A DNA stretch of 64,000 nt from assembly GCA_011046135.1 (NCBI GenBank), contig DSBG01000092.1, positions 11,034-75,033 of the forward strand, written 5' to 3'. Shown piece by piece: positions 2,143-57,538 of the stretch (positions are counted from its first letter, which is position 1; the number at the start of each line of letters is the position of its first letter). Source of the DNA: Deltaproteobacteria bacterium. GTDB taxonomy: Bacteria; Desulfobacterota; Desulfomonilia; UBA1062. The translations under genes were made by a program, and so were the position numbers. The notes under the pieces are model-generated. The model searched no databases, had not been told where the DNA came from, and saw only the letters and a program-made list of their open reading frames with translations.

Positions 2143-3153
2143 CTACTGTTCTCGGGATCTGTCTGCATACGTGTTCGCCTGGGCAATGACATACGCTCTG
2201 AAGTCCAGACCCTTCCTGATGATGCGCCCCATGTCTTTTCTCCGCGTCCACCTGCTGTGGAGCCAGAGCCACTGCTCGGGATGTTCCCGTACCACGGAAC
2301 TCACCCATGCCTGCATCCAGGTGCTCAACTCCTGGACAGCGCGTGATTTCCAGGAATCAAAGACCGAGTCTATCTGGGTGTAGTCGTCCTGATAGGACCG
2401 GGTGTCAATGGGTTGTTCGAAACGGAACCGGTAATGATCACCTTCCTTGATGGTTGCCACTGGTATGACAAGGGCATCCCCCTTGAGCGCTATGAAGGCA
2501 GGGGCAGGGTTTGTAGGTGCAGGCATGCCGAGGAAGTCGCAGAAGAGTCCGGAATCCCGCTTTCCCATCTGGTCGATGACAAATCCCACGAGTCGACCCT
2601 TCTTCAGTTCCTTGATGAGCATGGGAACCATGCCTCCCTTCGGGGGAAGGTAGACGAATCCGCACCGGGATCGGATGTCCTCCATGATGGCCTGGATCCG
2701 GGGGTTCTTGTGGATGCGGCCCATGACACAGAACTCGATCCCGAGCAGTCTTGGGATATTTCCGAGGACCTCCCAGTTCATGTGGGCCGTGATCCCCAGC
2801 ACCCCCCGCCCTGAAGAGAGCACTGCCTCAAGGTTTTCTCTTCCCTCGATCACCACCCGTTTCTTAATCTCGTCATCGTCCAGGTAGGCGAACCTCAGGG
2901 CATCGATCATGAGCAGGACCTGGTTGATGAACACCTTTTTAGTAATGAGCGTTTCTTCTCCCCTGGTGCCCAGGGCGTGGCGGATCTGGAGGTTGCTGAT
3001 CCTTCGGTGGAGGGGGTCGAGGATCCACCCGAGGATTCCCAACGTTTTTCCCACAGCAACCACCAACGGATAGGGCAGGGATCGGATGAGAAAGAGGACA
3101 GTGCTGAACATGAGGGATTGGATCTCTCCAGCAATTCGATGTGCGATCTTCAT
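2143..3153 (-). CDS. lpxL: lipid A biosynthesis lauroyl/myristoyl acyltransferase (LpxL family)
   Basis: A 336-aa protein co-linear with the neighbouring paralog (VLFLIRSLPYP...ITAHMNWEVL) and directly upstream of gmhB-lpxK. Confidence 0.75.
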   Translation of the reverse strand: MKIAHRIAGEIQSLMFSTVLFLIRSLPYPLVVAVGKTLGILGWILDPLHRRISNLQIRHALGTRGEETLITKKVFINQVLLMIDALRFAYLDDDEIKKRVVIEGRENLEAVLSSGRGVLGITAHMNWEVLGNIPRLLGIEFCVMGRIHKNPRIQAIMEDIRSRCGFVYLPPKGGMVPMLIKELKKGRLVGFVIDQMGKRDSGLFCDFLGMPAPTNPAPAFIALKGDALVIPVATIKEGDHYRFRFEQPIDTRSYQDDYTQIDSVFDSWKSRAVQELSTWMQAWVSSVVREHPEQWLWLHSRWTRRKDMGRIIRKGLDFRAYVIAQANTYADRSREQ

Positions 3154-3702
3154 GGGGTCATGTCCTCCAGGATCCAGGAAACTGCCTCGGGCAGATCCCG
3201 TGCAATAAAATCAGCGCTGTGGTTGTGCATATCCATAACACTTGTTCTCAGGAGAATCCCTGTTCCCCCGACCCGGTGGATGGTTTCAATATCGTCGGGC
3301 TTGTCGCCTATCATATAGCATGCCCCGAGGTCCATGCCAAACTCTTGCGCTGCCTTCAAAAGCATTCCGGGCTGTGGTTTCCGGCACGAGCAGTGCATGC
3401 GATACGCGCTCACCGTACCATCGGGGTGGTGCGGGCAATAATAGATCCCGTCGATGCGTGCCCCCTGTTTGAGAAGAAGGCTAAGAAGCCGACCATGAAT
3501 GTCTGCGAGGATGGCTTCATCAAGAAATCCCCGCGCGATTCCCGACTGGTTCGTGGTCACGATGACCGGGATCCCCCGCTCATTGAGCATTTTCAGGGCA
3601 CGGGGTACCCCGGGAAGGATCTCGATCCCGTCGGGGTCTCTCAGGTAGTTCTTGTCCCGGATGATGGTATCATCCCTGTCGAGAAATACGCCTGTTCCTG
3701 AC
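3150..3702 (-). CDS. gmhB: D-glycero-D-manno-heptose 1,7-bisphosphate phosphatase (HAD family, GmhB-like)
   Basis: It carries an FLDRDDTI motif resembling the HAD DxDGT motif I, plus a C-terminal Cys cluster. The likely start is a TTG at 3702 preceded by AAGGAGA; the track ORF extends further 5' into lpxK. Confidence 0.7.
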
Positions 3703-4632
3703 AATGGTCTCGATCTCCTTGAGAATGGGTTCCATGGAGTCCATCCTGAGCGCAATCCTGACGCTCAAGAGCCTCTCTTTGACGTCTTGAATCCAGGGAT
3801 GTTCTATTCTGACAAGATCTTTCTCCGTGGTGATGATGAGATCCGACCCCTGGGCTTCTCTGACAATCATGCGCATGTCTCCGGCTGTGTAGGTATAGTG
3901 GTCTGCAAACACCCGTGAGGTTACTTGGGCCCCCAGGCTTCTCAATCCCGAGAGAAACCCTTCCGGGCGTGCGATTCCGCAGAAGGCGAACACCTTTTTT
4001 CCAAGAACGCTGGACAGGTCATGGGTGTTCCCGCTTACGTCTACAAAACAGCTCATCTCAATAGAAGCCTTCAGGGCATACGAGGAATTCTCCTTGGTGG
4101 AGATGATGATGTGTGCGCGGCTCAGGGAGGACAGGGGTTCTCTCAGGTGTCCTGCGGGAAGGAGGACCTCGCCGTCGAGGTTTCTTGACACGAGCACGAT
4201 ATCCAGGTCGCGGTGAATCCTGCGATGCTGGAACCCATCGTCGAGGATCACGAGGTCCGCATCGAGTTCGCTATACGCGAACCACGCTCCTTTCACCCGG
4301 TCGGGGGACTTTATCACCGGCACCCTGGTGGTCTGGGCCATGAGCAGGGCCTCGTCGCCCACATCGCGGCTCGAATGAGAACCGGTTACGAGCAGCGGAC
4401 CTGTGAGCCTGCCCCGATATCCCCTGGTGAGGATCACACAGCGGTGGCCTCGTTCCTTGAGCCTGCCTGAAAGCGCCATGACAAAAGGGGTCTTCCCGGT
4501 ACCACCGGTCTCGATGTTTCCGACACTGATGATCGCCGGTGGGGTGCGATGAACCGCCAGGATGCCCGCATCATAGAGGGCGTTGCGCCAGGATACGGCC
4601 CTGCCGTAGAGTGTTGAGAGGATCCTACTCAT
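3670..4632 (-). CDS. lpxK: tetraacyldisaccharide 4'-kinase
   Basis: A P-loop GGTGKTP in an LpxK-like context (VISVGNIETGGTGKTPFV). The start is taken as MSRIL at 4632, overlapping the msbA stop by 8 nt. Confidence 0.85.
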   Translation of the reverse strand: MSRILSTLYGRAVSWRNALYDAGILAVHRTPPAIISVGNIETGGTGKTPFVMALSGRLKERGHRCVILTRGYRGRLTGPLLVTGSHSSRDVGDEALLMAQTTRVPVIKSPDRVKGAWFAYSELDADLVILDDGFQHRRIHRDLDIVLVSRNLDGEVLLPAGHLREPLSSLSRAHIIISTKENSSYALKASIEMSCFVDVSGNTHDLSSVLGKKVFAFCGIARPEGFLSGLRSLGAQVTSRVFADHYTYTAGDMRMIVREAQGSDLIITTEKDLVRIEHPWIQDVKERLLSVRIALRMDSMEPILKEIETIVRNRRISRQG

Positions 4633-20063: not shown

Positions 20064-20080
20064 GTGGCATTGATATTGCT
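20064..20080 (+). promoter_or_regulatory. sigma-54 promoter upstream of flgF
   Basis: TGGCAT-tgata-TTGCT has GG and GC at consensus -24/-12 spacing. It lies 28 nt upstream of the flgF ATG and is followed by the RBS GAGGGAGGA. Confidence 0.55.
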
Positions 20081-20107
20081 CAAAGGACAGCCGAGGGAGG
20101 AAGTCAT

Positions 20108-20845: not shown

Positions 20846-20863
20846 CAAAAAGGAGGAGAAGAC

Positions 20864-21646: not shown

Positions 21647-21654
21647 GGGACATC

Positions 21655-22605: not shown

Positions 22606-22614
22606 GAGGAAGAA

Positions 22615-23307
22615 ATGATCCAGCGATACAGTGTCATGGTTGCTGCTCTCCTGGTTTTGAGTGCTTGTGCCCACACGAGAAGCGGGCCTGAGTTTATCGA
22701 AGACACGATGGCTATTCCCGTGGAGGAAGAGCCCGTAGTCGTTGAGGCCCCTGGGTCATTATGGACACCCAGCGCCAAATTTGTGAACATGTACGGAGAT
22801 TTGAAGGCGTCTCGTGTTGGGGATATCGTTGTCGTCCAGGTTGTCGAGAGCTCGTCGGCCAACAAGGAAGCTAAGACAGAATCGGAGAAATCGAGCTCGG
22901 TCGACAATTCCGTCGACAATGTCCTCGGGTTGCCGCTTGATGCATCATCGGTCTTCGGATATAAGCTCAGCCCGACGCTTGCTGCGTCATCGTCCTCGGA
23001 TTTCGAGGCCGATGGAAAGACCTCGAGGAAAGGTTCTATCAGTGCGGTCGTCTCTGCAAGGGTTGTGCGCGTGCTTCCTTCGGGTAATATGATGATCAAC
23101 GGAAAGAAGCAGATCAGGGTGAATAACGAGCACCAGTACATCATTCTCTCCGGCATTGTTCGGCCCGAAGATATCAGCCCGTCAAACTCAATACAGTCGA
23201 CGTACATAGCCGACCTGCACCTTGACTACTACGGAAGTGGCATCATCGGTGACCAGCAAAACAAAGGTATTCTGGGCAGGGCCTTTGACAAAATATGGCC
23301 CTTCTGA
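22615..23307 (+). CDS. flgH: flagellar L-ring lipoprotein FlgH
   Basis: A lipobox (LVLSAC) and FlgH-family C-terminal repeats (…TYIADLHLDYYGSG…). Confidence 0.85.
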   Translation: MIQRYSVMVAALLVLSACAHTRSGPEFIEDTMAIPVEEEPVVVEAPGSLWTPSAKFVNMYGDLKASRVGDIVVVQVVESSSANKEAKTESEKSSSVDNSVDNVLGLPLDASSVFGYKLSPTLAASSSSDFEADGKTSRKGSISAVVSARVVRVLPSGNMMINGKKQIRVNNEHQYIILSGIVRPEDISPSNSIQSTYIADLHLDYYGSGIIGDQQNKGILGRAFDKIWPF

Positions 23308-23315
23308 GGTATGAC

Positions 23316-24401
23316 ATGAAAAGACTCTGTTTGGTTGTCCTCATTCTCATTCTGGGTGCTCACAATCTCTATGCGGTTCGGATCAAAGATCTTGTCGAAA
23401 TACAGGGCGTTAGGGAAAATAAGCTCACGGGATACGGGCTTGTTGTGGGGCTCACCGGAACAGGAGACAAGTCCGGTGCTGAAGTAACCATTCGCTCTCT
23501 TGCAAACATGTTGAGAAACATGGGCATTCAGGTCGATCCCACTACCTTGAAGCCCAAGAATGTTGCAGCGGTGATGGTCACCGCCAGCCTGCCGCCCTTT
23601 GCCAGGAGTTCACAAAAGCTCGACTGTACCGTGTCGTCCCTGGGTGATTCATCATCACTGGCCGGGGGAACCCTCATCTCCACCCCCCTGTTCGGACCTG
23701 ATGGAAAGGTCTATGCCATGGCACAGGGACCGGTGACTGTCGGAGGATTTGCCGTGGGCGGGGTCGGTGCCGGGATTGTCAAGAATATTCCCACTGTGGC
23801 AATGATTCCTTCCGGTGCAATTGTGGAACGATCGATGGATGCCTCCCTTGGTCCCCGGATACTGTTGTTGATGAACAATCCTGATTTCACCACCACGCAA
23901 CGGCTTGTGCGAACCATCAACGAGAAACTCGGAACAGAGGTTGCACACGCGCAGGATCTCACTTCCGTCGAAATCCAGGTTCCCCAGCAGTACCTCAACA
24001 GGATCGTAGATTTTGTTGCACTGATTGAATCAGTTGATGTCGCCCCTGATAACAGGGCGAGGGTAGTTGTCAATGAACGTACCGGGACCGTGGTCATGGG
24101 CGATGATGTGAGAATCTCCACCGTGGCCATTGCCCATGGGAATTTGAGCATCAGGATTACCGAGGAGCCTGTGGTATCTCAGCCGCTGCCGTTTTCTCGC
24201 GGCGATACCGTGATTCTTCCCCGGACCGGTGTGACCGTGGACGAAGGAGGAAAGAGCCTGGTGGTGCTTCCGAGCGGTACAACCATCGCAGATCTCGTCG
24301 GGGCCCTCAATGCGATCGGGGTAACGCCCCGGGATCTCCTGGTCATTCTGCAGTGCATAAAGAGCGCCGGTGCGCTGTATGCAGAACTGGAGGTCATATG
24401 A
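23316..24401 (+). CDS. flgI: flagellar P-ring protein FlgI
   Basis: A signal peptide followed by the FlgI core (RIKDLVEIQGVRENKLTGYGLVVGLTGTGD). The start is placed at MKRL at 23316, which has an RBS; the track ORF begins 21 nt earlier and overlaps flgH. Confidence 0.9.
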   Translation: MKRLCLVVLILILGAHNLYAVRIKDLVEIQGVRENKLTGYGLVVGLTGTGDKSGAEVTIRSLANMLRNMGIQVDPTTLKPKNVAAVMVTASLPPFARSSQKLDCTVSSLGDSSSLAGGTLISTPLFGPDGKVYAMAQGPVTVGGFAVGGVGAGIVKNIPTVAMIPSGAIVERSMDASLGPRILLLMNNPDFTTTQRLVRTINEKLGTEVAHAQDLTSVEIQVPQQYLNRIVDFVALIESVDVAPDNRARVVVNERTGTVVMGDDVRISTVAIAHGNLSIRITEEPVVSQPLPFSRGDTVILPRTGVTVDEGGKSLVVLPSGTTIADLVGALNAIGVTPRDLLVILQCIKSAGALYAELEVI

Positions 24402-24721
24402 TGTACGACGTAAGCCCCCTGACTCACATCCGGCATACGAACCCAGAGAAGGCCCTCGAGAAGGCATGCAAGGACTTTGAAGCCATTTTTATCCACCAGC
24501 TCCTAAAATCCATGGGCAAGACCGTGTCCGAGGGGATACTCGATGCAGGACTTGCCGATGAGATCTACAAGGACATGCTCTACATGAATATTGCGAGTTC
24601 GGTGGCTCAGTCAGGGGGACTTGGGCTCTCGGAGATTCTCAGTGAGTACATCAGGACCGATGGCACGCAAGAGCATGCAACCCGATTCCTGCCTGGTGAT
24701 AGGATTTCAACGAGCGAATGA
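24398..24721 (+). CDS. flgJ: flagellar rod-assembly protein FlgJ, rod-binding domain only
   Basis: It contains the Rod_binding motif FEAIFIHQLLKSMGKT…GGLGLSEIL and has no C-terminal glucosaminidase domain. Its ATG overlaps the flgI stop (ATGA). Confidence 0.7.
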   Translation: MMYDVSPLTHIRHTNPEKALEKACKDFEAIFIHQLLKSMGKTVSEGILDAGLADEIYKDMLYMNIASSVAQSGGLGLSEILSEYIRTDGTQEHATRFLPGDRISTSE

Positions 24722-24767
24722 GTCTCTGGTATGGAACAGGGAAAACAATGAAAGCCGGGGTGAGTAC

Positions 24768-25187
24768 ATGACCTGTACAGACATGATGGCGGCACTCGGG
24801 AAAGAAAAAGAGCTGATTGCAGCACTCAACGTGTGTCTCGAAGAGGAATTGGGATATATCTCAGCCCAGGACCTTGTGGGGCTGGAAGAATCTTTGCCGC
24901 ACAAGCAGAAACTGCTCCTCGAGATTGCGAAGAACAGACAGGGGATTGATATGGAGAGGGACCCCGACCAGGAACATGCACAGACCATCGGGATCCTTCA
25001 GCAGGAACTTATTGAACTGTGGAAAAAGGCAAACAACTTCAACGAATTGTCCAAGACGCTCGTGAGTAGCAGGCTCAATGACATTGAACGTCAGATCGCC
25101 ATCTTCCTTGCAGGGCTGAAGGGAACCTATACCAGACAGGGGAAGACGTCGGGTGTGCCTGCGCGCATGATAAAGACGGGAGTTTAG
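24768..25187 (+). CDS. FlgN-like flagellar export chaperone (candidate)
   Basis: An all-helical protein of about 140 aa immediately upstream of flgK. The start could be any of several nearby Met codons. Confidence 0.5.
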   Translation: MTCTDMMAALGKEKELIAALNVCLEEELGYISAQDLVGLEESLPHKQKLLLEIAKNRQGIDMERDPDQEHAQTIGILQQELIELWKKANNFNELSKTLVSSRLNDIERQIAIFLAGLKGTYTRQGKTSGVPARMIKTGV

Positions 25188-25188
25188 T

Positions 25189-26964
25189 ATGTCTAGCATA
25201 GGCGGGGCATTCGACATTGCACGATGGTCCATGTATTCCTCGCAGCTGGCCATCCAGATCACTGCACATAACATCGCCAACGCAAACACCGTCGGTTATT
25301 CGAGACAGAGCTTGCGTGTGGAGGCCAACAACCCAATCACCACCGGACCCGGCCAGATTGGGACTGGTGTTCGAGCCGCAGAGGTGATGAGGTCCTACGA
25401 TGCGTTCATCAATGAGCAGGTCTCGCAGAAAACTTCTGAGTATTTTTTCTGGAATGCCAAGAGAACTGCCATGGAGGAGATTGAGACAATCTTCAATGAG
25501 ACCAATGGGTTCGGGATCAATGCACAGATGGGAGAGTTCTGGAATGCATGGAGTGATCTTGCCAACCACCCCGAAGGGATACCGGAGCGTGAGGCCCTCC
25601 TGGCAAAAACAGACAATCTAATCCAGCACGTTCAGGATATTGACTATAATCTCAGATTCTACCAGATGCACCTGGACAGCGGCATCAGAGGATCCGTTGG
25701 TCATATCAATACTCTTATAGAGCAGATCGCTGACCTGAATAAAAGCATATCCAGCGTGGAGATCGATGGCCTCATTAACGCAAACGATCTGCGTGACCGC
25801 AGGGAACTTCTTTTGGAACAGCTCTCTGAATATCTGGATATCTCTTATTATGAAGAGGAAAATTCCGGTCAGATCATGGTCTACATCCTCGGTGGCACAC
25901 CGCTGGTGCTGGGCAAGGATGCCTATGAGCTCAGCATTGAGAGGAATCTCAGCACGGGGTTTTCAGACATACTGTGGATTGATTCATCGGGAAGGACGGT
26001 GAATATTACCAACAAGCTGAAAGGGGGAAAGATCTCCGGATGGATTGATGTAAGAGACAGAGATATCCCTTCATACCTCGAAATGCTCAACACGCTGAGC
26101 CGTGAACTCGTCTGGCAGGTCAATTCGCTGCATGCAGAAGGAGTGGGGCTTGCCCCGGTCACCTCCATGGTGGGGACGGTGTCAATATCCCAGGCAAGTG
26201 ACGATCTCGGTGCAGACTTTCTGTTCAGCAGCAGATATCAGCCAGGGGGGAATTTTGAAATCGTTGTCTATAACCAGACAGGAGCAGTGGCTGACACCTA
26301 TGTGATCACCCCCGCTGGAGATACGGTTCAGGACCTCATCGACGCCGTCAATTCAGTATCAGGGGGAGAGATCAGTGCATCCCTGAGCGGAGGAACGAGC
26401 GGATATTTCCAGATTCAGGCCTCCGGGGATTTCAGCTTCGCCATCAAAAAGGTCCCTGAGAGCCAGTCGAACAATTCCCTTGCCCTCCTGGGTGTCAACA
26501 CCTTCTTTTCATGGAGTGAGCAGACGGGATCCATGATGGAGGACATAACCCGAACCATGGATGTGAATGCTTCCCTGAAGGGAAATCCTCACCTCATCAG
26601 TGCAGGATACCTTGACAGTGAAGGCAGGGTTGCTCCTGGCCAGAATGAAGTGGCCCGAGCCATTTTCTCCCTGCAGGACAAGGTGATCCCCGACATGGGA
26701 GGCAGTGGTACAGACACCACCCTGAGTACCTTTTACAGCGCATTCATTGGAAAGGTTGGTGTGGATGTCACCAATGCAGTACAGAACGAGAAGTACAACG
26801 ACAGTCTCCTGGCGCAGTATAGCCGGAGGAAAGAGTCCATCACGGGAGTCAATCTCGATGACGAGATGGCTGAACTCCTCAAGTTTCAGCATCTCTACCA
26901 GGCAGCAGCCAAGATGATCTCCATTGCCGACGAGATGATGCAGACATTGCTTTCAATCAAATAA
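25189..26964 (+). CDS. flgK: flagellar hook-associated protein 1 (FlgK)
   Basis: A 591-aa protein with an N-terminal axial-family helix (QLAIQITAHNIANANTVGYSRQ) and a C-terminal LLKFQHLYQAAAKM motif. Confidence 0.85.
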   Translation: MSSIGGAFDIARWSMYSSQLAIQITAHNIANANTVGYSRQSLRVEANNPITTGPGQIGTGVRAAEVMRSYDAFINEQVSQKTSEYFFWNAKRTAMEEIETIFNETNGFGINAQMGEFWNAWSDLANHPEGIPEREALLAKTDNLIQHVQDIDYNLRFYQMHLDSGIRGSVGHINTLIEQIADLNKSISSVEIDGLINANDLRDRRELLLEQLSEYLDISYYEEENSGQIMVYILGGTPLVLGKDAYELSIERNLSTGFSDILWIDSSGRTVNITNKLKGGKISGWIDVRDRDIPSYLEMLNTLSRELVWQVNSLHAEGVGLAPVTSMVGTVSISQASDDLGADFLFSSRYQPGGNFEIVVYNQTGAVADTYVITPAGDTVQDLIDAVNSVSGGEISASLSGGTSGYFQIQASGDFSFAIKKVPESQSNNSLALLGVNTFFSWSEQTGSMMEDITRTMDVNASLKGNPHLISAGYLDSEGRVAPGQNEVARAIFSLQDKVIPDMGGSGTDTTLSTFYSAFIGKVGVDVTNAVQNEKYNDSLLAQYSRRKESITGVNLDDEMAELLKFQHLYQAAAKMISIADEMMQTLLSIK

Positions 26965-49921: not shown

Positions 49922-51589
49922 TCATGGGGTTCCACGTTTGAGGCGTCTCTTGTTCGAATATGCGGTGATACGTGAGATCAGTTCTTTTCGTCTGGCTTCC
50001 AGGGAGGTGTTCCCCGAGAGGTAGAGCTGGAGGAAGGAGCATCTGATTTCCTCGGGCAGGACTCTTTCCAGGGACACGTTGAGATAACTCAGGTTTTTTG
50101 CGATGAGGTACAGACTTGGATAGCGTACCCGGTGCAATCTGTCCAGGTCGATGAGATAGATTTGATCATCGCCTATGAGTAGATTCTCGGCCTTGAAATC
50201 CGTGTGGACGATACCCATTTCATGGATACCCCTGACAAATTGTGCAATTCTCGGGAGAGAAGTTCCTACACACGACGTATCCTTGAGGTATGTTGCAAGG
50301 TCAGGGGCATGGACGTATCTCGTTGCCAGATACGATGAGAGGAGAACTCCACAGAACCTCTTTTCGCAGGAGAACAGGACATCGGGGGTGGCAATCCCGA
50401 GCTCCTCGAGCATGAGTGATGCCTCGAACGCCCGTCGTGCTCTGCTCTTCCTGAAGAGATTCTTCAGACTGTCTCTGATTCCCTTGTAGTTGTACCTTTT
50501 CAAGAAGATAGTCTCTGCTCCGAGCTGACCGCACTTGACAAGGGAGGTTTTTGAACGGTTCACCACCGTGGTGCTGAAGGTCTCCATGAAACGATCAGGA
50601 TCGTGAACCTCGGCAGGGATTGATGTTTTGGGCTTGAGATACCAGGTATACCTATTTGCGAAGTGGAACCCATGTTTTCTCGGGCACGGTTCCATTCCCC
50701 AGCTCCGGGGCTGTCCGAGGAGATGCCACAGGAGAAGGGAACATGATTTTCTGAGTCTGTCCTTGAAGGCCGGGTTGTATGCCATGAAGAGGTGTCCCAG
50801 GCTTTCGAAGAAGAGCTTCGCTATCGTGAGTCCATACAGAGCGAAATACTGACATGATCCCTTGTGCTTGCGGAAAAATCGGAAGAGGGAACGGTGAAAT
50901 TCCACATTTCTCCTGAGATTGGCTTTTTTCGCGGTGACACCTTGGTGGTGCACGACCGATAGGTGGGGGAGGTGCCACACCTCGAAACCTCTGTCACGGG
51001 CACGTTTGCAGAGATCTGTCTCTTCAAGGTAGAAAAAAAAGCCTTCATCCAGCATCCCGATGAGATCGAAGAGCTGTCGCTTGATCATCATACATGCGCC
51101 GATCACGGAGGGCACTTCAACAGACCGGGTGAATCCCGAACGCTTGCTGGGATACAGGCGTGGGAACAGGATTTTGAGCAAGGATTTGTTTACCACCTGT
51201 GTGAAGAGGTTCGGGATCACATCCACGGAATTTTGGAGCCTTCCATCAGGGAAGACGAGTTGAGGACCGCAGATCATGCAGCGTGGATTCTCCGAAAGAA
51301 AATTTTCCATGGGGGTGATACAGTCGGAGGAAAGGACGGCATCGGAATTCAGGAGCAAAACTACATCTCCCTTTGCCCGTATGAGTCCTCGGTTCACGGC
51401 ACGCGCGAAACCCAAGTTCCTGCCGTTTTCGATGATGGTCACGGAAACATCATTGTCTGGCAGGAGAGCATCCGGAGCATTGTTTACCAGAATAATCTCG
51501 TAGGCACACCTCACGTGGGTTTTCAGCGAGGAAAGGCACTGGTCAAGAAGCTCGTCATGACCCATGGTAACGATGATGATGCTGACCAT
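49922..51589 (-). CDS. fusion protein: family-2 glycosyltransferase (N-terminal) plus a Kdo/WaaP-family lipopolysaccharide kinase domain (C-terminal)
   Basis: A GT-A fold (SIIIVTMGHDE…LLNSDAV…) is followed by a kinase domain with …FLKRYNY… and the catalytic HTDFKAENLLI…IDLDR motifs. Confidence 0.7.
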   Translation of the reverse strand: MVSIIIVTMGHDELLDQCLSSLKTHVRCAYEIILVNNAPDALLPDNDVSVTIIENGRNLGFARAVNRGLIRAKGDVVLLLNSDAVLSSDCITPMENFLSENPRCMICGPQLVFPDGRLQNSVDVIPNLFTQVVNKSLLKILFPRLYPSKRSGFTRSVEVPSVIGACMMIKRQLFDLIGMLDEGFFFYLEETDLCKRARDRGFEVWHLPHLSVVHHQGVTAKKANLRRNVEFHRSLFRFFRKHKGSCQYFALYGLTIAKLFFESLGHLFMAYNPAFKDRLRKSCSLLLWHLLGQPRSWGMEPCPRKHGFHFANRYTWYLKPKTSIPAEVHDPDRFMETFSTTVVNRSKTSLVKCGQLGAETIFLKRYNYKGIRDSLKNLFRKSRARRAFEASLMLEELGIATPDVLFSCEKRFCGVLLSSYLATRYVHAPDLATYLKDTSCVGTSLPRIAQFVRGIHEMGIVHTDFKAENLLIGDDQIYLIDLDRLHRVRYPSLYLIAKNLSYLNVSLERVLPEEIRCSFLQLYLSGNTSLEARRKELISRITAYSNKRRLKRGTP

Positions 51590-51799
51590 CTGGCTCACCT
51601 TTAAAGAGAAATGCCCGGTTCTGCGGGTGAACGAAGAACAGCGCCGAGATCTCGGAATCATGTTCAGGGCGTATGCCGTGGCACGCTCCTCTGGTTCTGG
51701 TGATCGGCCTGCACTTCAAATTCTTACCTATACGATATTTTTTGGGATGCCAAGTGAAAGAAAGGACCTTGGATTTTGACATGGGATCAAGTTGTGGTA

Positions 51800-52744
51800 A
51801 TGAAGTTGTCCATGGACGTGACTATCATCGGTGCTGCACGGAGAAACAACGGTATCGGGGAATTCATCGCCAGATACTTTCATGCCCGGGGAGCTTCCAT
51901 AACTGCAGTGCTCGGGACCTCTGAGCAGACCACCTCGGCGGCTGCAGATCACCTGCGACGGTATGGAATCAAGGCTTCGGCATATACAGACTTCTCCCGC
52001 ATGATTTCTGAGCAGAAGCCCGATGCCGTGGTGATCGCCTCTCCCGGACCGACCCACGTGTCGTACCTGCAGCAGTGTGTTGATGCCGGAGTTCATATCT
52101 TTTGCGAAAAGCCCATAATCTCCCCTGGTGCCGAGGTACATGAGCGCTTTCTCACCGATCTCTTTGATCAGGCCTCCTCCCGTGGGATCAGGATCGCCAT
52201 GAATTCCCAGTGGCCATTTTCCCTGCCGTTTTATGATGCACTCTGTGGAAGATTTTCTCCAGGTGAGATCGAGAGCTTTTTTATCCACCTTTCTCCCCTG
52301 ATGCGAGGACGGGCGATGATTCCCGAGTCTCTGCCCCATGCTCTAAGCCTGATGCACGCACGTGTGGGCCCGGGTAAGATAGAAGATCTCAGCCTGATGG
52401 AAACAGACGCAGGGCTTCTGATCAAATTTTTCTACGCCTCTCTTTGGGGCCGGTGTTCAGTCGTGGTGGAACTGGAACAGGAGGAGTATCAACCGAGGAG
52501 CTTCTCATACGGATTCAACGGGAGGATTGTCCACCGGAACATTGAACCTTCTACATACACTATTTCCTTGACGTACCGCGACAAAACCCTGAAAATACCG
52601 GATCCTCTCGAGCTATCAGTGGGTGATTTCATAACTGCGTTGAATACAGGTTCACAGCCCATGATTGATACGGAGCATATTCTTGAAACGTCTTCCCTGC
52701 TGCAGGATATCTACAGGGAATATACGATGGAGACCAAGGGGTAA
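51800..52744 (+). CDS. Gfo/Idh/MocA-family NAD(P)-dependent sugar oxidoreductase
   Basis: A Rossmann N-terminus (VTIIGAARRNNGIGEF) and the EKP motif (FCEKPIISP). Its stop is 2 nt before the radical-SAM start. Confidence 0.7.
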   Translation: MKLSMDVTIIGAARRNNGIGEFIARYFHARGASITAVLGTSEQTTSAAADHLRRYGIKASAYTDFSRMISEQKPDAVVIASPGPTHVSYLQQCVDAGVHIFCEKPIISPGAEVHERFLTDLFDQASSRGIRIAMNSQWPFSLPFYDALCGRFSPGEIESFFIHLSPLMRGRAMIPESLPHALSLMHARVGPGKIEDLSLMETDAGLLIKFFYASLWGRCSVVVELEQEEYQPRSFSYGFNGRIVHRNIEPSTYTISLTYRDKTLKIPDPLELSVGDFITALNTGSQPMIDTEHILETSSLLQDIYREYTMETKG

Positions 52745-52746
52745 GT

Positions 52747-53964
52747 ATGGAACAACTCAAAGAGAGAGAGCACGATTTCAGCGCAAAACTCAGGCAGGCT
52801 TCAGTCATCGAATCTCTCAAGGAGTACATCTCCTGGCAGAGAAAGGTGCGGTCATCATCGGGACAGCCGGTGTTTCCACGACGTGGACCGATCTCGGTCA
52901 ACCTGGATCTTACAACGGCATGTAACTTCTCCTGCCCCCACTGTGTGGATTCACGGATGCTCAACACCGGTGATTATCTTGATCTCGACACGATCAAGCG
53001 GAGCATCGAGACACTGCAGAACAACGGGCTGCTCTCGGTGATTCTCATCGGCGGTGGAGAACCGACCATTCATAAGAACTTCGAAGAGCTTGTGAGGTTC
53101 CTTTCCCGGCAGGGCCTCCAGATCGGCATTGCCACCAACGGCTCCCGTCTCGAGAGGGTCGCATCCGTTGCGGATGCGTTCAAGGAAGGTGATTGGCTGA
53201 GGCTGTCCCTCGATGCGGCTCGCGAGAGTACTTTTTTCAAGTCCCACCGACCACGAGGCCGAATCAGCCTCGAGAAGATTCTCGGTGATGCTTCTGAGAT
53301 CAAGAATGCCAACAGTGCCCTCTCCCTGGGATACTCCTTCGTGATCGTGTGGAAAGGCATTCTCATCAATGGTTATGAACTCTGCGAAAATGTTCAGGAG
53401 ATTCCCGAAGCGGTGAGGTTGGCACGCGAGAACCACTTCGACTATATTTCCTTCAAACCGTGTCTCCTGCGCCTTGATGGATCTCTGAAGGAGTCGATCT
53501 TCAGTCAGCCCGATGAAGAGCATGAAACACAGGTCATTGATGAAATTACACGGAATCTGGAAAAAGCCAGGCATGAGGCATCTGACGGTGTGAAGATTCT
53601 CGAGAGCATCAATCTTGATGCGATGCTGAACAGGAAGGTCCATGAACTCAAGGTTCAACCTCAGGTGTGCCACAGTCAGTTTTTCCGGACAGTGATCGCT
53701 CCGTCCGGTATTTTCCACTGTCCCGCGCTGCGAGGAGTTGATCTGGGAAGAATCGGGAGCGAAGATGGGTATAAATCTGCGGGGAACTTTGAGCAGACGC
53801 AGGCCAACCTCGAACGCTCCCTGAGGAACTTTGATGCAGCGAAGGAATGTGATGTGGTGGTATGTTTCTACCATCACGTGAACTGGTGGATCGAGAAGTT
53901 CATCACCTCTCGAAAGAGCGTCCGGTCCCTGACCAAGGTCGAGGACGATAATTTCTTTCTGTAG
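52747..53964 (+). CDS. radical SAM protein, possibly with a C-terminal auxiliary Cys motif, function unknown
   Basis: The motif CNFSCPHC (CxxxCxxC) follows a roughly 50-aa N-terminal extension. A glycine-rich SAM motif ILIGGGEPT is present. Additional Cys residues lie near the C-terminus (…CHSQFF…HCPAL…CDVVVC…). Confidence 0.75.
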   Translation: MEQLKEREHDFSAKLRQASVIESLKEYISWQRKVRSSSGQPVFPRRGPISVNLDLTTACNFSCPHCVDSRMLNTGDYLDLDTIKRSIETLQNNGLLSVILIGGGEPTIHKNFEELVRFLSRQGLQIGIATNGSRLERVASVADAFKEGDWLRLSLDAARESTFFKSHRPRGRISLEKILGDASEIKNANSALSLGYSFVIVWKGILINGYELCENVQEIPEAVRLARENHFDYISFKPCLLRLDGSLKESIFSQPDEEHETQVIDEITRNLEKARHEASDGVKILESINLDAMLNRKVHELKVQPQVCHSQFFRTVIAPSGIFHCPALRGVDLGRIGSEDGYKSAGNFEQTQANLERSLRNFDAAKECDVVVCFYHHVNWWIEKFITSRKSVRSLTKVEDDNFFL

Positions 53965-53965
53965 C

Positions 53966-55006
53966 ATGTCCATGGAATGCACGAAGATAGGGGTAATTCA
54001 TCTCAATCAGATCGGCGATCTCCTTTTCTCTCTGCCGCTACTTGCTTCGCTCCGTGAACGATTCCCCCGCGCCCGGATTGATTCCATTCTGAGGCCCGCG
54101 CTCAAGGATCTCCTGGAAGACTCCCCTTTCGTCGATCGTTTCATTGTGCGCGATCAGGGAAGCGTGCCATGGTTCAGGCTTGCCAGGGCTCTCAGGAGAG
54201 AGCGTTACGATCTTGTGCTCTGCCTTTCAAGATCAGAAGGAGCCCTCACACTGGCCGCAGCAATCAACGCGAGGGTTTCTGCCGGCTTTGCCACGTTTCC
54301 CTGGGACATGTGTCTGGATGTGAAGGAAACCCTCGAGGGTCACAACAGCTGGTACAATAATGCGAAGCTTCTCAGGCTGCTGGAGATCATTCCAAGCCGG
54401 GATAGCTATGTGGGGCTCTTGCGGGTGAGTGACTCGGCATATCGGGGTGATCTGCCGGAGAGATTTGTCGTGATCTCGCCCGGTGCGTCCAAGAGACGGC
54501 TCATAAAAGCGTGGGACGAGAAGAAATTTGCAGAACTCATGGTAGCGTTACGCGAGCACGCTTCTCTCACTCCGGTTATCGTGGGAGGTAACGACTCAAG
54601 GGCTTGCGCTGCTCTCATCAGTTCACACTACCGGGAAATCAGAGGATTCTCACGCGCATCAGAAGAACTGCTCGACCTCACCGGAGCAATGTCACTGAGG
54701 GAACTCTGCTCTCTCCTCACACGTGCAAGGTTGTTTGTGGGGATAGATTCAGGGGTGATGCACCTTTCTTCGGCCCTTGACATACCGGTTGTGGGGCTCT
54801 TCGGCCCCACAGACCCGTTCTATGTCGGGCCTCAAAATACAAAGAGCATCGTGGTAAAACAGGAGGTCTCCTGCTCTCCCTGCTACATCAGAACACCCTG
54901 CAGCCACAGGGAGTGCATGGAGAATCTTCCGGTTTCCAGTGTCTTGGATGCCTGCAGGACTCTTTTGGAAAACAGGGAGGAAGAGCACGTCACAAGGCAT
55001 GCATGA
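53966..55006 (+). CDS. ADP-heptose:LPS heptosyltransferase (GT9 family)
   Basis: The GT9 N-terminus IGVIHLNQIGDLLFSLPLLASLR and a C-terminal GxDSGxMHLA motif. Confidence 0.8.
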   Translation: MSMECTKIGVIHLNQIGDLLFSLPLLASLRERFPRARIDSILRPALKDLLEDSPFVDRFIVRDQGSVPWFRLARALRRERYDLVLCLSRSEGALTLAAAINARVSAGFATFPWDMCLDVKETLEGHNSWYNNAKLLRLLEIIPSRDSYVGLLRVSDSAYRGDLPERFVVISPGASKRRLIKAWDEKKFAELMVALREHASLTPVIVGGNDSRACAALISSHYREIRGFSRASEELLDLTGAMSLRELCSLLTRARLFVGIDSGVMHLSSALDIPVVGLFGPTDPFYVGPQNTKSIVVKQEVSCSPCYIRTPCSHRECMENLPVSSVLDACRTLLENREEEHVTRHA

Positions 55007-55030: not shown

Positions 55031-56536
55031 GTGTCACAGCGTGGGAATCCGTTGTGCTCAAACTCCGGGCAACATCCCGCGCGAGGGAGAGAGGCCATTA
55101 CCATCTACGAAGTCATTCGAAGGAACTATCCGGATCACCGCATGAAGCTCTTTCAGGAGCGGTCATCGCGGAAGATCGTTGTTCTCGAGAAGCAGGGCAG
55201 CACAGAGTATTTCTGTAAGGTTTACGACGCAAGCGACTTCCTGTCCAGGATGAGGAACAGATTCTTCCCGAAGACCCTCAAAGAGGCGGACATGCTCGGT
55301 CGCTTAAAAGAAAAAGGTCTCCCGGTACCCGAGATTCAGGGTCACATGCTGCATGCTGGAGCAAGTGCACTTATTACCAGGGCCATTGAACCAGCTCAAT
55401 CCCTCTGGGAGGTGGATCCTTCCATCCGGGGGACAATCATGCTGGAGATGGCTGTCCTCCTGCTCAAGCACGGGTTTTCTCACCGCGACATGCATCCGGG
55501 CAACATCATTCTCGACAGTTCCGGCAGAGCGTTCCTCATCGATGCCTATGAAATTTCCGCCCATGGCCGCATCGGGAAAAGGGAGATTATTCGTCTATTT
55601 GCCCAGATTTTCAATGCATCCAATATCTCACCTGCTGATCTTGAGAAACATCTCGTTGGGTTTCAGCACATCGACGATTCTGCCACGTTGGCTGCCAAGA
55701 TCGTGCGGTCGGCCCTGAGAACAAAGAGGAGATACGTGAGGAAGCGGGTGAAACGGTCCATGAGAGAAGGAAGTTTCTCCACGGTTCTGAAAACAGGGAA
55801 TTTCTCGGCATGGATCCGCAGAGGGGAGGCCATCGATGTGGAAAGCATCATTGCCCGGCACGAAGCAAATCTGGCAAACGGTATCGATATTCTGAAGGTC
55901 CAGGACAAGACGCAACTGAGCAGGGTGGACCAGTACTGCGTGAAATCGTACCGGAAATCCTGGCCCTTTGGAGAGCCATATGCCAGAAGATCCTGGAAGG
56001 GGCTCCTCACACTTGTCTTCAATGGGATTAAGACCGCCGGTCCGGTTGCGTTGGTTGTTTTCAAAGATGGGAGGAGTTCACTCATTACCTCTGTCCTGGA
56101 TCACCAAGATCTCGATCAATTTATCGGTGAATCATACAGAACACTGGACATGCACGAACGGATCGGAATTGCCCGCGCGTTCGGTTCCGTGATTGGGACC
56201 CTTCACTCCCGCAGGATCTACCATGCTGATCTCAAGGCGTGTAACATCAAGATTGACCCGGAAACACGTGAGTTCTTTTTTCTGGACACGGATCGAGTAG
56301 GACAACAGAGGCACCTTTCCAAGGACAGGGTGTACGAAAATCTGGTTCAGATCAATACGAGCATCCCGAGGTTCGTAAGTCGTGGCGAGAGAATGTCATT
56401 CATCAATGCCTATGCGGCAAGAACCGGACAGAACCCCAAGGAGGTCTTCATCCGGGTATGGGAACTCTCCCGCACAAGGGGCATCCTATACTGTTCTTCA
56501 GAGGGAGATCGGTTCGAAGGGTGGATCGAGAAATAA
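55031..56536 (+). CDS. tandem double Kdo/WaaP-family LPS (heptose/Kdo) kinase
   Basis: Two kinase cores with the catalytic loops HRDMHPGNIIL…IDAYE and YHADLKACNIKI…LDTDR. The start is a GTG and is uncertain. Confidence 0.65.
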   Translation: MSQRGNPLCSNSGQHPARGREAITIYEVIRRNYPDHRMKLFQERSSRKIVVLEKQGSTEYFCKVYDASDFLSRMRNRFFPKTLKEADMLGRLKEKGLPVPEIQGHMLHAGASALITRAIEPAQSLWEVDPSIRGTIMLEMAVLLLKHGFSHRDMHPGNIILDSSGRAFLIDAYEISAHGRIGKREIIRLFAQIFNASNISPADLEKHLVGFQHIDDSATLAAKIVRSALRTKRRYVRKRVKRSMREGSFSTVLKTGNFSAWIRRGEAIDVESIIARHEANLANGIDILKVQDKTQLSRVDQYCVKSYRKSWPFGEPYARRSWKGLLTLVFNGIKTAGPVALVVFKDGRSSLITSVLDHQDLDQFIGESYRTLDMHERIGIARAFGSVIGTLHSRRIYHADLKACNIKIDPETREFFFLDTDRVGQQRHLSKDRVYENLVQINTSIPRFVSRGERMSFINAYAARTGQNPKEVFIRVWELSRTRGILYCSSEGDRFEGWIEK

Positions 56537-56554: not shown

Positions 56555-57538
56555 CTACTTCGCAAGAACTGCATTGAGTTTTTCCAGCACATCGGATGCA
56601 GTGATGGATTTCATGCAGACAGGATCGTCGCACACGCGCCTGTTGCATGGTGAACAGTGAAGATCCTTTCGAATCACTTCCCCGACAAAAGGTCCAGTCC
56701 GCCTTGGATCGGCAGGACCAAAGAGTGCGATGACTTTTTTCCCCAGGGCTACCGCCAGATGCATGGGCCCGGTGTCACAGCTGATTACTGCGTGTGATCC
56801 TGCAAGAACCTCTTTGAGTTCGAGGAGGGATGTTTTTCCGGTAAGGTTGATAACCTCCTGTCCTGCCATGGTCTCGATCTCATGAGAAAACTGCACGTCT
56901 TCTCGGCCGCCGGTCAGGACACAGGGGATGCCGTATCGTTGTACGCATTCGCGCACAAGGCTGGAGAACCCTTCGGCGGTCCAGCGGTTTGCCGGTTTTG
57001 TGGCTCCGATGTTGAGAACCAGGTACTCTCGGGGCAGAGCATGCGATGGTATTCCCGTAACGGGAATCTCCCAGCGGATATCATTATCAGGAACACCGAG
57101 GTGTTTCGCGAACTCAAGATACTGATACACCATGTGAGCGGAAGGATCGCTTTTCGGGATGCGTTCAAAGGGCATGATCCAGGTCATTTCTTTACACCGC
57201 TGCCTGTCGAAACCGATTCGTCTGGTGCTCCGGGAGATCATGCACATGAGGGAAGATTTCGCGGTGCGTTGGAGGTCAAGGGAAATGTCCCAGTACCCTT
57301 TTGAGAGCTGGATAATGATCTTTGGAACAGATAGAGGAAGCCGATTCTTATCAAAGAGGATAACAGAATCAACAGAGGGGTGACCTGATACGAGGGGTAA
57401 GCTCAGAGGCTCGACGAGCCAGTGTATCCGGGCCCCCAGATGGATCTTCAGGGTAACTGCCAGTGGCAGGCTGTTCACCACATCTCCCATGGCACCGAGT
57501 TTCACAAAGAGGATATCCATTTGTTTCTGATAAAACAT
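56555..57538 (-). CDS. ADP-heptose:LPS heptosyltransferase (GT9 family), second copy
   Basis: ILFVKLGAMGDVVNSLPLAVTLK at the N-terminus and GPMHLAVALGKKVIALFGPADP near the C-terminus. Confidence 0.8.
   Translation of the reverse strand: MFYQKQMDILFVKLGAMGDVVNSLPLAVTLKIHLGARIHWLVEPLSLPLVSGHPSVDSVILFDKNRLPLSVPKIIIQLSKGYWDISLDLQRTAKSSLMCMISRSTRRIGFDRQRCKEMTWIMPFERIPKSDPSAHMVYQYLEFAKHLGVPDNDIRWEIPVTGIPSHALPREYLVLNIGATKPANRWTAEGFSSLVRECVQRYGIPCVLTGGREDVQFSHEIETMAGQEVINLTGKTSLLELKEVLAGSHAVISCDTGPMHLAVALGKKVIALFGPADPRRTGPFVGEVIRKDLHCSPCNRRVCDDPVCMKSITASDVLEKLNAVLAK

Follow-up and report, generated by a model that had tools for sequence, protein, structure and literature searches.

A coupled oxidoreductase and radical-SAM gene pair at an LPS-core locus as a candidate unit for tailoring nucleotide-activated heptose

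We have analysed a window of 64,000 nt, that is, the whole stretch of DNA considered here, from Deltaproteobacteria bacterium (GCA_011046135.1, DSBG01000092.1, positions 11,034 to 75,033, forward strand). In this window, a gene for an NAD(P) oxidoreductase of the Gfo/Idh/MocA family is followed by a radical-SAM (rSAM) gene, and both lie among genes for glycosyltransferases and Kdo/WaaP-type kinases (Table 1). The oxidoreductase stop codon (TAA, 52742-52744) and the rSAM start codon (ATG, 52747) are separated by the letters 'gt', so that the spacer is exactly 2 nt. The rSAM stop codon lies 1 nt before the start of the first GT9 gene (GT9a), and the protein with two kinase domains closes the plus-strand run. 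The GT2-kinase fusion is located on the minus strand and is thus divergent from the pair, and the second GT9 gene is convergent with the oxidoreductase-rSAM operon. When the region of 51.5-57.7 kb was scanned for promoters and terminators, the results were no better than those from shuffled sequences. The ORFs, the 2-nt spacer, the CxxxCxxC and GGGEPT motifs and the GT2-kinase and GT9 flanks, as described in an earlier sequence-only reading of this DNA, were confirmed by sequence and Pfam.

Table 1. Positions of the genes and motifs discussed, numbered along the window.
Feature	Position	Strand	Basis
GmhB-like heptose-1,7-bisphosphate phosphatase	3150..3755	-	NF006506 158.5 bits vs cut-off 178; tblastn match
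GT2 glycosyltransferase + Kdo/WaaP-type kinase fusion	49922..51661	-	PF00535 3.2e-17, PF06293 6.2e-13
Gfo/Idh/MocA NAD(P) oxidoreductase	51776..52744	+	PF01408 4.6e-16; partner of rSAM
Radical-SAM (rSAM) gene, 405 aa	52747..53964	+	Radical_SAM (PF04055) 1.3e-19; C-terminal twitch-like domain
CX3CX2C motif (C59, C63, C66), predicted SAM-cleaving [4Fe-4S] site	52921..52944	+	direct sequence reading
GGGEPT (GGE) SAM-binding motif, aa 102-107	53050..53067	+	direct sequence reading; invariant in alignment
C308, C325, C368, C373, predicted auxiliary-cluster Cys	53668..53865	+	invariant across both subfamilies
GT9 (heptosyltransferase-family) glycosyltransferase, GT9a	53966..55006	+	PF01075 4.8e-31
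Protein with two Kdo/WaaP-type kinase domains	55031..56536	+	PF06293 1.5e-16, two stretches
Second GT9, heptosyltransferase I-like	56555..57538	-	PF01075 3.2e-35; TIGR02193 118.9 bits vs cut-off 185

The GT9 family is not made up solely of heptosyltransferases. GT9a reaches the domain threshold of PF01075 with 108 bits and remains under the cut-offs of the heptosyltransferase II/III equivalog models TIGR02195 (111 vs 134.6) and TIGR02201 (108 vs 170); we presume that GT9a is the user of the modified sugar. The GmhB-like gene is found within the lipid-A gene cluster of the window and suggests that the organism makes a nucleotide-heptose.

The longest ORF of the oxidoreductase begins with TTG at 51776. 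In a public annotation, the identical protein (P0121, 314 aa) is called from an ATG at 51800, and this is the likely start. The N-terminal Rossmann domain was recognised by PF01408 with 60 bits (cut-off 24). In an alignment of 40 sequences, the EKP motif (E103-K104-P105, nt 52106-52114) is (nearly) invariant and the (D/E)176-x3-H180 motif is conserved, and the catalytic Lys of EKP is retained in the oxidoreductase. A Pfam scan of the protein did not detect the C-terminal domain. When the AF2 model (pLDDT 94) was compared with the PDB by Foldseek, sugar oxidoreductases were matched with a TM of about 0.7, among them GnnA, KijD10, WlbA, inositol dehydrogenase and 1,5-anhydrofructose reductase. 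Based on the whole-chain fold match and the conserved (D/E)-x3-H, the oxidoreductase is predicted to have the C-terminal alpha/beta substrate-binding domain of the Gfo/Idh/MocA family with the catalytic Asp/His. In other phyla, the rSAM occurs together with oxidoreductase orthologues of 31-33% identity, and the partner oxidoreductases across phyla form one orthologous lineage. The window also holds another Gfo-family gene, which is unrelated to this lineage.

The rSAM protein scored 71 bits against PF04055 (cut-off 29.5) and shows both the GGE motif and the partial (beta/alpha)6 TIM-barrel fold by which the superfamily is recognised. The CX3CX2C motif is invariant in alignments of 58 and 22 sequences. 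SPASM/twitch domains are C-terminal and hold one or two clusters (PMC8326336). The four C-terminal Cys residues are kept down to about 38% identity in both subfamilies of the rSAM, and in the AF2 model C308 is followed by a hairpin of residues 314-323 (strands 314-318 and 321-323), C325, a helix of residues 345-361 and C368-x4-C373. The twitch topology in the BtrN and anSME structures consists of a beta-hairpin flanked by Cys and then a helix. With its invariant Cys residues and their arrangement in the model, the C-terminus of the rSAM resembles a twitch-type domain for a predicted single auxiliary Fe-S cluster. PF13186 (SPASM) gave no match in the rSAM at E <= 0.01, and the seven-Cys SPASM pattern is absent, the invariant C-terminal Cys residues being four only. 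The suggestion of an auxiliary-cluster C-terminus was supported for a twitch-like domain.

The rSAM fits none of the curated families. Its scores against the viperin profiles (NF038283, 59 bits vs 180; TIGR04278, 32 bits vs 450) and MoaA (TIGR02666, 56.9 bits vs 284) are below the cut-offs, and no close relationship to AprD4 was found in structure or sequence. Among solved structures, the nearest folds are those of the nucleotide-sugar enzymes BlsE and DesII, followed by SkfB, SuiB, MoaA and viperin. Sequence and profile alignments to PDB entries cover residues of about 35-185 only and are thus uninformative on the C-terminal half. As neither profile nor fold searches matched a characterised family, we consider the rSAM a member of an uncharacterised one, and the sequence-only reading, which a well-characterised family unrelated to glycans would have contradicted, stands on this point. 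We also considered whether Cys239 might donate the H atom in an epimerase reaction of the rSAM. This residue is located at the end of a core strand (residues 233-238) and is invariant within the subfamily of the window; the sister subfamily has Phe there, and Cys239 was therefore dropped as a family-wide catalytic residue.

An rSAM relative is encoded in 477 GTDB species genomes, and we examined the loci of the best 80 of these, all from MAGs, which are mostly from Desulfobacterota with some from Planctomycetota. Oxidoreductase-rSAM pairs were also found in Acidobacteriota and Gammaproteobacteria, and the adjacency is kept across four phyla. Among these 80 best loci, the oxidoreductase lies directly 5' of the rSAM in 70 of the 72 informative loci, and a GT9 gene lies directly 3' of it in 57/69. 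Moreover, at least six distinct proteins are natural oxidoreductase-rSAM fusions (P0241, P0242, P0255, P0258, P0447 and P0489), and P0447 was found on 5 contigs. Because of the two adjacencies and these fusions, the observed coupling is beyond chance. The adjacency across four phyla and the fusions also support the proposal, already made from the window sequence, that the oxidoreductase and the rSAM act as a functional two-enzyme unit.

In the surroundings of the pair, the GT2-kinase fusion gene is present at 13 related loci, and the two-domain Kdo/WaaP kinase keeps its position in about 20 loci. The GT9 proteins that accompany the pair in different phyla share 23-33% identity and do not form one orthologous lineage. 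Two further rSAM fusions were set aside. An RdgB/Ham1-rSAM fusion (P0256) was seen once only, on a contig of 3 kb, and was left out of the evidence, and a HAD(GmhB)-rSAM fusion (P0393, 564 aa, PF00702) has an exact internal duplication in its sequence, indicating an assembly artefact. On rSAM members of 425-465 aa, the marks of PF00702 are weak. The sole plasmid match, an rSAM of 28% identity whose gene adjoins a sugar ABC transporter on a megaplasmid of Streptomyces, is too distant to inform.

We observed that the pair stands beside LPS-core and lipid-A genes in relatives, and the synteny on which the sequence-only reading depended is thus borne out. LpxK, LpxL, WaaA, KdkA-like kinases, WaaG-like GT4 and ArnT/C/B-like genes occur everywhere examined in Desulfobacterota and in one gammaproteobacterium. 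On the other hand, an Acidobacteriota locus and the fusion P0447 are outside the heptose context, beside genes for FabA/ApeI-like proteins, ketosynthase, methyltransferase and acyl-AMP ligase, and one oxidoreductase-rSAM pair stands alone beside Mla genes.

The link to ADP-heptose comes from fusions and operons. Three distinct proteins (P0251, P0391 and P0392, 63-66% mutual identity) are fusions of an HldD-like domain, that is, an ADP-heptose 6-epimerase-like domain, with the rSAM, and P0392 and P0251 each also occur on another contig that was assembled independently. The HldD-like domain of P0251 scored 267 bits on TIGR02197, just under the cut-off of 274.6. These fusions belong to the sister subfamily, which is about 44% identical to the rSAM of the window and is outside its own subfamily. 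GmhA-HldC, HldA and GmhB are encoded as well at L082 and L084, two of the loci with these fusions, and GT9 is present in all three. In a Planctomycetota locus (L087), the genes hldD, oxidoreductase and rSAM overlap, and the stand-alone hldD exceeds the same cut-off with 371 bits. Within the subfamily of the window, several loci have HldC after GT9, and two (L031 and L066) have HldD, GmhA or GmhB near the pair. The sequence-only reading had proposed a core sugar as the target in general terms. The fusions and operons point to ADP-heptose as the probable substrate, not to a generic core sugar.

It is quite unlikely, in our estimation, that the pair modifies Kdo or another lipid A-attached inner-core residue and not a heptose donor, for example through O2-independent hydroxylation or oxidation of Kdo, as an anaerobic counterpart of KdoO, or by making the substrate for the adjacent Kdo/WaaP kinases. 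In favour of such a role, the genes on either side of the pair in the window encode three Kdo/WaaP-type kinase domains, although heptose kinases also belong to this family, and KdkA-like kinases, LpxK and LpxL often occur nearby. Most carriers are anaerobes, which are unable to use the O2-dependent KdoO. In the Acidiferrobacterales locus the pair adjoins WaaA and a Kdo kinase, but this locus already has KdoO (PF11004) by the pair. Also, the HldD-rSAM fusions and the operon of hldD, oxidoreductase and rSAM indicate ADP-heptose, and the nearest rSAM folds work on soluble nucleoside-linked sugars.

The association with heptose genes might instead reflect a general clustering of envelope-glycan genes, in which case the soluble substrate of the pair would be another sugar or a cyclitol, for instance a UDP-hexose or an inositol-type compound, and may vary by lineage. 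We consider this unlikely, given that GT9 adjoins the rSAM in 57/69 loci, that three independent HldD fusions exist, and that HldC, GmhA and GmhB are neighbours in the same subfamily; no inositol-phosphate synthase or UDP-sugar enzyme was consistently found near the pair in related loci. It is highly improbable that the LPS location is incidental and the rSAM is a SPASM/twitch maturase of a RiPP, protein or cofactor (such as SkfB, SuiB, anSME, PqqE or a tungsten-cofactor maturase) or a viperin-like dehydratase. Its scores are far under the family cut-offs (69 vs 380; 59 vs 180; 57 vs 284), and about 45 residues precede the core, with no N-terminal domain of RRE size. We know of no viperins with an auxiliary-cluster domain. 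Furthermore, no conserved precursor-peptide gene lies nearby, the context is LPS across 80 loci, and the rSAM has a sugar oxidoreductase as its constant partner, in some cases within one fusion protein.

On balance, we lean towards the reading that the oxidoreductase and the rSAM form a unit that, via a keto-heptose, tailors the nucleotide-activated heptose (most likely ADP-glycero-manno-heptose) destined for the LPS inner core, and that GT9 installs the product. The analysis establishes the coupling of the genes, the domain anatomy, the fusions and the LPS and heptose setting of the loci. We infer the substrate from the fusions and the gene neighbourhood only, and the keto intermediate, the order of steps and the product are likewise proposed. 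The rSAM would cleave SAM at the CX3CX2C cluster, and the resulting 5'-deoxyadenosyl radical would take H from a heptose carbon that bears a hydroxyl. Two routes could then lead from the substrate radical to a keto-heptose, namely a dehydration like that of AprD4, viperin and DesII, in which the adjacent hydroxyl is lost, or a dehydrogenation like that of BtrN, in which the twitch-domain cluster serves a one-electron oxidation. The Gfo/Idh/MocA partner would reduce or otherwise interconvert the ketone with NAD(P)H, and the net product would be a deoxy-heptose or epimeric heptose donor. In this case, the co-transcribed GT9 would attach the product to the core and the neighbouring kinases would decorate it.

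A keto-sugar intermediate had been suggested from the window sequence, together with a dehydrogenase-first, radical-second order. The intermediate is still the most economical logic, and the order could run either way. In the HldD-fusion loci, which lack the oxidoreductase, an aldo-keto reductase gene lies directly after the rSAM and a DegT aminotransferase gene is adjacent, and a 318-353-aa unannotated neighbour, considered as a hidden Gfo homologue, fails the oxidoreductase profile. Aldo-keto reductases and DegT aminotransferases are consumers of sugar ketones. Since they replace the oxidoreductase in these loci, the partner may equally reduce a ketone made by the rSAM; in the reverse order, the oxidoreductase could make the ketone first. 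C-methylation, which had also been suggested, is unlikely, as the rSAM has no cobalamin-binding or methyltransferase-type domain and its fold neighbours are DesII, BlsE, MoaA and viperin.

The reactions that build the LPS inner core are seen as a closed list, namely Kdo and heptose transfer, phosphorylation and a few decorations, and to our knowledge no radical chemistry is among them. We suggest, tentatively and with less confidence than the tailoring itself, that the unit, as two proteins or as one fusion, carries out the first radical-SAM step of LPS inner-core biosynthesis, converting ADP-heptose to an undescribed deoxy or epimeric donor for dedicated GT9s. If so, it would represent a new enzymatic step, and probably a new core sugar, in large, mostly uncultured lineages, and this sugar would be common yet unrecognised in the LPS core of environmental Gram-negative bacteria. 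The rSAM family would also enlarge the small group of radical-SAM enzymes on sugar nucleotides. ADP-heptose is an innate-immune agonist, and enzymes that alter it are therefore of broader interest. Literature searches on radical-SAM enzymes in connection with ADP-heptose, heptosyltransferases, MocA proteins, lipid A or Kdo returned nothing relevant and no published description of the pair, and neither LPS nor Kdo nor heptose is named in a 2026 review of rSAMs that modify lipids.

In comparison with known systems, the canonical route to ADP-L-glycero-beta-D-manno-heptose proceeds through GmhA, HldE or HldA and HldC, GmhB and HldD, and its GT9s are WaaC, WaaF and WaaQ. The window locus and its relatives share this gene company, with HldD fused or overlapping, HldC, GmhA and GmhB as neighbours and GT9 genes on both sides. 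However, the canonical pathway has no radical-SAM or Gfo/Idh/MocA step, and the GT9s of the window score under the curated equivalog cut-offs. DesII (TDP-4-amino-4,6-dideoxy-D-glucose deaminase, desosamine) and BlsE (cytosylglucuronate decarboxylase, blasticidin S) have the nearest folds, but the identity is only 13-18% and the sequence match is confined to the N-terminal half of the rSAM (26 bits to BlsE). They belong to actinomycete antibiotic pathways, not LPS, and have no fixed Gfo/Idh/MocA partner; we know of no four-Cys auxiliary cluster in either. The dehydrogenases BtrN and SpeY, the epimerases NeoN and HygY, and AbmJ/AbmM of the albomycin thioheptose have a C-terminal single-cluster twitch-type domain, as is predicted for the rSAM of the window, and the twitch carbohydrate enzymes (BtrN, SpeY, NeoN, HygY and AbmJ) target a sugar C-H beside oxygen. 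Among them, AbmJ is an earlier case of radical chemistry on a sugar derived from a heptose (PMC9978623). For the conserved pair, the best functional analogy is AprD4/AprD3 of apramycin C3' deoxygenation, in which an rSAM 1,2-diol dehydratase makes a keto-sugar through radical dehydration and a dedicated NADPH-dependent reductase completes the deoxygenation (PMC5461906). We consider that the rSAM represents an uncharacterised family in which radical chemistry already known from sugars is put to use in a new setting.

The Gfo/Idh/MocA oxidoreductase and the radical-SAM protein (rSAM) are closely packed in an LPS-core locus. The oxidoreductase stop codon, TAA, occupies 52742-52744, and the rSAM ATG follows two bases on. 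This 2-nt junction, the rSAM motifs and the flanking GT2-kinase fusion and GT9 gene had been noticed in the sequence-only reading, and all were found as described. The oxidoreductase begins with TTG 51776 in the longest ORF and with ATG 51800 in the public identical protein P0121 (314 aa). The kinase architectures on both sides of the operon, a GT2-Kdo/WaaP fusion and one protein with two Kdo/WaaP domains, are unusual, and both are kept in closer relatives. The GT9 genes score below curated equivalog cut-offs. Close relatives (82% identical) are labelled Desulfomonilia MAGs, and a partial copy (99% identical) also comes from a Desulfomonilia-labelled MAG. Two antisense ORFs overlapping the pair are probably shadow ORFs of the conserved plus-strand genes.

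Coordinates of the features discussed (window positions unless a related locus is named)
Feature	Location	Strand	Remarks
Second Gfo/Idh/MocA gene	7454-8374	-	between lpxA and lpxB
Flagellar basal-body/hook-associated block	20057-26964	+	FlgF/G-like rods, FlgA, FlgH, FlgI, FlgN, FlgK; between lipid-A cluster and LPS-core locus
GT2 plus Kdo/WaaP-kinase fusion	49922-51661	-	opposite strand, upstream of the pair
Antisense ORF over oxidoreductase	51728-52339	-	203 aa
Gfo/Idh/MocA oxidoreductase	51776-52744	+	PF01408, 4.6e-16
Radical-SAM protein	52747-53964	+	PF04055, 1.3e-19
Antisense ORF over rSAM	52951-53982	-	343 aa
GT9 gene (GT9a)	53966-55006	+	starts 1 nt past the rSAM stop
Protein with two Kdo/WaaP kinase domains	55031-56536	+	after GT9a
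Second GT9 gene	56555-57538	convergent	after the double-kinase gene
HldD-like-rSAM fusion gene	L081 8001-10166		high-GC locus
HldD-like-rSAM fusion gene	L082 8001-10184		high-GC locus
HldD-like-rSAM fusion gene	L084 5427-7559		high-GC locus
Split partner oxidoreductase	L016 9064-9982		long-read MAG
Unit beside lipid/glycolipid genes	L086 6040-8230		Acidobacteriota MAG
Unit beside lipid/glycolipid genes	L090 807-3035		P0447 fusion contigs
Distant rSAM homologue	L093 8980-10092		Streptomyces sp. BHT-5-2 plasmid p1, NZ_CP081497.1; 28% identical

At its 5' end, the window has a classical BamA-Skp-LpxD-LpxA-(Gfo)-LpxB-MsbA-LpxK-(GmhB-like)-LpxL-LpxL cluster. Accordingly, the host makes conventional lipid A and probably also nucleotide-heptose. 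The second Gfo gene encodes a protein resembling UDP-GlcNAc 3-dehydrogenase of the GnnA type (212 bits against a cut-off of 450), which hints at GlcN3N-containing lipid A. A flagellar block was also found in the window.

In a GTDB scan with one genome per species, 477 genomes encoded an rSAM relative, and the best 80 loci, all from MAGs, were retrieved. Searching these with the window proteins (tblastn) showed that, of the 72 loci with sufficient sequence upstream of the rSAM, 70 have the oxidoreductase as the immediately preceding gene on the same strand, and that a GT9 gene lies directly downstream of the rSAM in 57/69. The order oxidoreductase-rSAM-GT9, most of the gene order that the sequence-only reading had proposed to check, is thus conserved in the majority of loci, with LPS genes as the recurrent neighbours. 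Loci L018 and L023 have no oxidoreductase, and in L016 it appears as two adjacent pieces, through a frameshift error or because the gene is a pseudogene. When 1.8 billion representative proteins were searched exhaustively with a profile, 139 of them matched at E <= 1e-30. Several of these are 710-745 aa long, and inspection identified genuine oxidoreductase-rSAM fusions (P0241, P0242, P0255, P0258, P0447 and P0489), P0447 being seen on five contigs from different samples. Over their full length, the partner oxidoreductases of Planctomycetota, Acidobacteriota and Gammaproteobacteria share 31-33% identity with that of the window; the second Gfo-family gene of the window has no meaningful similarity to them. 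Conserved adjacency, fusion proteins and a shared partner lineage therefore establish the oxidoreductase and the rSAM as a co-inherited functional unit.

Other architectures were also encountered. In P0256 (712 aa, on a 3-kb Logan contig), a Pro/Thr-rich linker connects the rSAM with a domain of the RdgB/Ham1 XTP/dITP diphosphatase type, which scores 218 bits where the cut-off is 234; this protein may be a gene-calling or assembly artefact because it occurs only once. P0393 (564 aa) was rejected as a domain fusion; a stretch of about 150 residues is exactly duplicated within it, almost certainly through an assembly error. The distant homologue on the 2.8-Mb, linear, unannotated Streptomyces replicon directly follows a sugar-type ABC transporter with one binding protein and two permeases.

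The rSAM carries C59-x3-C63-x2-C66 and GGGEPT (aa 102-107), and family lengths are strikingly uniform, with 405 aa in nearly all members. Its AF2 model (pLDDT 86.5) begins with a short N-terminal extension of two helices, which leads into the rSAM core and then a C-terminal domain. The extension, with an invariant H-D-F-x2-K-L-x-Q motif, is too small to be a peptide-recognition (RRE) domain. When both subfamilies were aligned, down to 37-42% identity, exactly seven Cys were invariant, namely the three of the SAM cluster and C308, C325, C368 and C373. In the model, C308 and C325 flank a beta-hairpin (314-323), which is followed by a helix (345-361) and then C368 and C373. This pattern is that of a predicted twitch-type single auxiliary cluster; of the SPASM/twitch-like C-terminus suggested earlier, the twitch-like part is retained and the SPASM part, having no Pfam match, is not. 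C239 is invariant in the window's subfamily and is Phe in the sister subfamily, which rules out a family-wide catalytic role. Curated NCBIfam models gave no score near their own cut-offs, the best being tungsten-cofactor maturase (69 vs 380 bits), prokaryotic viperin (59 vs 180) and MoaA (57 vs 284). The top Foldseek match was DesII, and the nearest solved relatives were a mix of nucleoside- or nucleotide-(sugar)-acting rSAMs and twitch/SPASM maturases. Judged by sequence, the rSAM is a distinct family, because all of these relatives are only 13-22% identical; the profile and structure searches matched no characterised family.

The oxidoreductase model (pLDDT 94) superposes at TM ~0.7 and 12-18% identity on sugar-acting Gfo/Idh/MocA enzymes, including GnnA (UDP-GlcNAc 3-dehydrogenase), 1,5-anhydrofructose reductase, inositol dehydrogenase, levoglucosan dehydrogenase, WlbA and KijD10. 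With the EKP motif and (D/E)-x3-H both kept, the enzyme is expected to be active. Its second Rossmann strand ends in V-L-G-T/S, with no acidic residue. In this fold, such an absence is frequently linked with NADP(H) as cofactor and with reductive function, and from the sequence we tentatively suggest both here.

Clustering of all ORFs of the 80 loci, with spot checks against NCBIfam, showed LPS genes throughout as recurrent neighbours: GT9 transferases, Kdo/WaaP-type kinases of several architectures, LpxK, LpxL, WaaG-like GT4, and ArnT-, ArnC- and ArnB-like genes. Next to the pair in an Acidiferrobacterales MAG (Gammaproteobacteria) are WaaA, a Kdo kinase, GT9 and KdoO. Stand-alone HldC (heptose-1-phosphate adenylyltransferase; 168 bits vs 181.5) directly follows GT9 in several loci, HldC and a homologue of HldD lie within 8 kb in L031, and GmhA and GmhB are present in L066. 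Some family members stand alone. In L086 and L090, the unit lies beside FabA/ApeI-like, ketosynthase, ACP, methyltransferase, Asp/Arg-hydroxylase-family and acyl-AMP-ligase genes, and no GT9 or heptose genes were found in these clusters. Substrates may differ between lineages.

HldD makes ADP-L-glycero-beta-D-manno-heptose. In the sister subfamily, the N-terminal domain of the fusion protein P0251 scores 267 bits on TIGR02197, the ADP-glyceromanno-heptose 6-epimerase model (cut-off 274.6; E 1.6e-79), and its rSAM domain is 44% identical to the window rSAM over 395 residues. Searching with P0251 found two further full-length fusions, P0391 and P0392 (63-66% identical). This HldD-like-rSAM fusion is real and conserved, because there are three related full-length examples and two of them, P0392 and P0251, were each seen again on another contig of independent assembly. 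One Planctomycetota MAG carries a bona fide hldD (371 bits), the oxidoreductase gene and the rSAM gene in that order, each overlapping the next. We consider this fusion and operon linkage the strongest available pointer to ADP-heptose as the substrate. The three fusion loci all hold GT9, a DegT aminotransferase, a luciferase-like oxidoreductase and at least one further rSAM (SPASM-type in each; a 303-aa protein in L082 and L084). L082 and L084 add GmhA-HldC, HldA (338 bits vs 345), GmhB and, directly behind the fusion gene, an aldo-keto reductase, and L082 also has a methyltransferase. The three fusion loci look like clusters for a heavily modified heptose or heptosamine. No Gfo partner was found in them, and the fused HldD-like domain may functionally replace it rather than supply substrate; ADP-heptose is implicated in either role.

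We consider it very probable that the coupled unit modifies an LPS-core sugar. With distinctly less assurance, we lean towards a reaction on ADP-heptose that passes through a keto intermediate. The sequence-only reading, a keto-sugar followed by a radical step on a core sugar, is thus supported in part, with its substrate sharpened. The rSAM would convert ADP-heptose to a keto-heptose by hydrogen abstraction at a carbinol carbon, followed either by elimination of a vicinal hydroxyl with AprD4-type logic or by one-electron oxidation via the predicted auxiliary cluster, as in BtrN-type dehydrogenases. The oxidoreductase would then reduce the ketone, with net deoxygenation or epimerisation, and the co-transcribed GT9a would transfer the product. 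A ketone made by the rSAM fits the aldo-keto reductase and aminotransferase next to the rSAM where the Gfo partner is missing; in the alternative, reverse order, the oxidoreductase would make the ketone before the radical step. C-methylation, suggested earlier, is unlikely because the rSAM has neither a cobalamin nor a methyltransferase-type domain.

Full-text literature searches linking radical SAM with heptosyltransferase, Kdo/lipid A, ADP-heptose or MocA found nothing relevant, and LPS, Kdo and heptose are all absent from a 2026 review of lipid-modifying rSAM enzymes. Viperin and DesII have a mode of action related to that of AprD4. DesII and BlsE are closest to the rSAM in fold. In function, the unit is closest to AprD4/AprD3, the aminoglycoside rSAM and nicotinamide-reductase pair, in which AprD4 removes a vicinal hydroxyl by a radical route and has the NADPH-dependent AprD3 as its partner (PMC5461906). 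The comparisons assigned the unit to none of the AprD4/AprD3, DesII or BlsE families. What would be new is the use of radical sugar-nucleotide tailoring, a known chemistry, in primary LPS-core biosynthesis, by a family that is widespread and uncharacterised.
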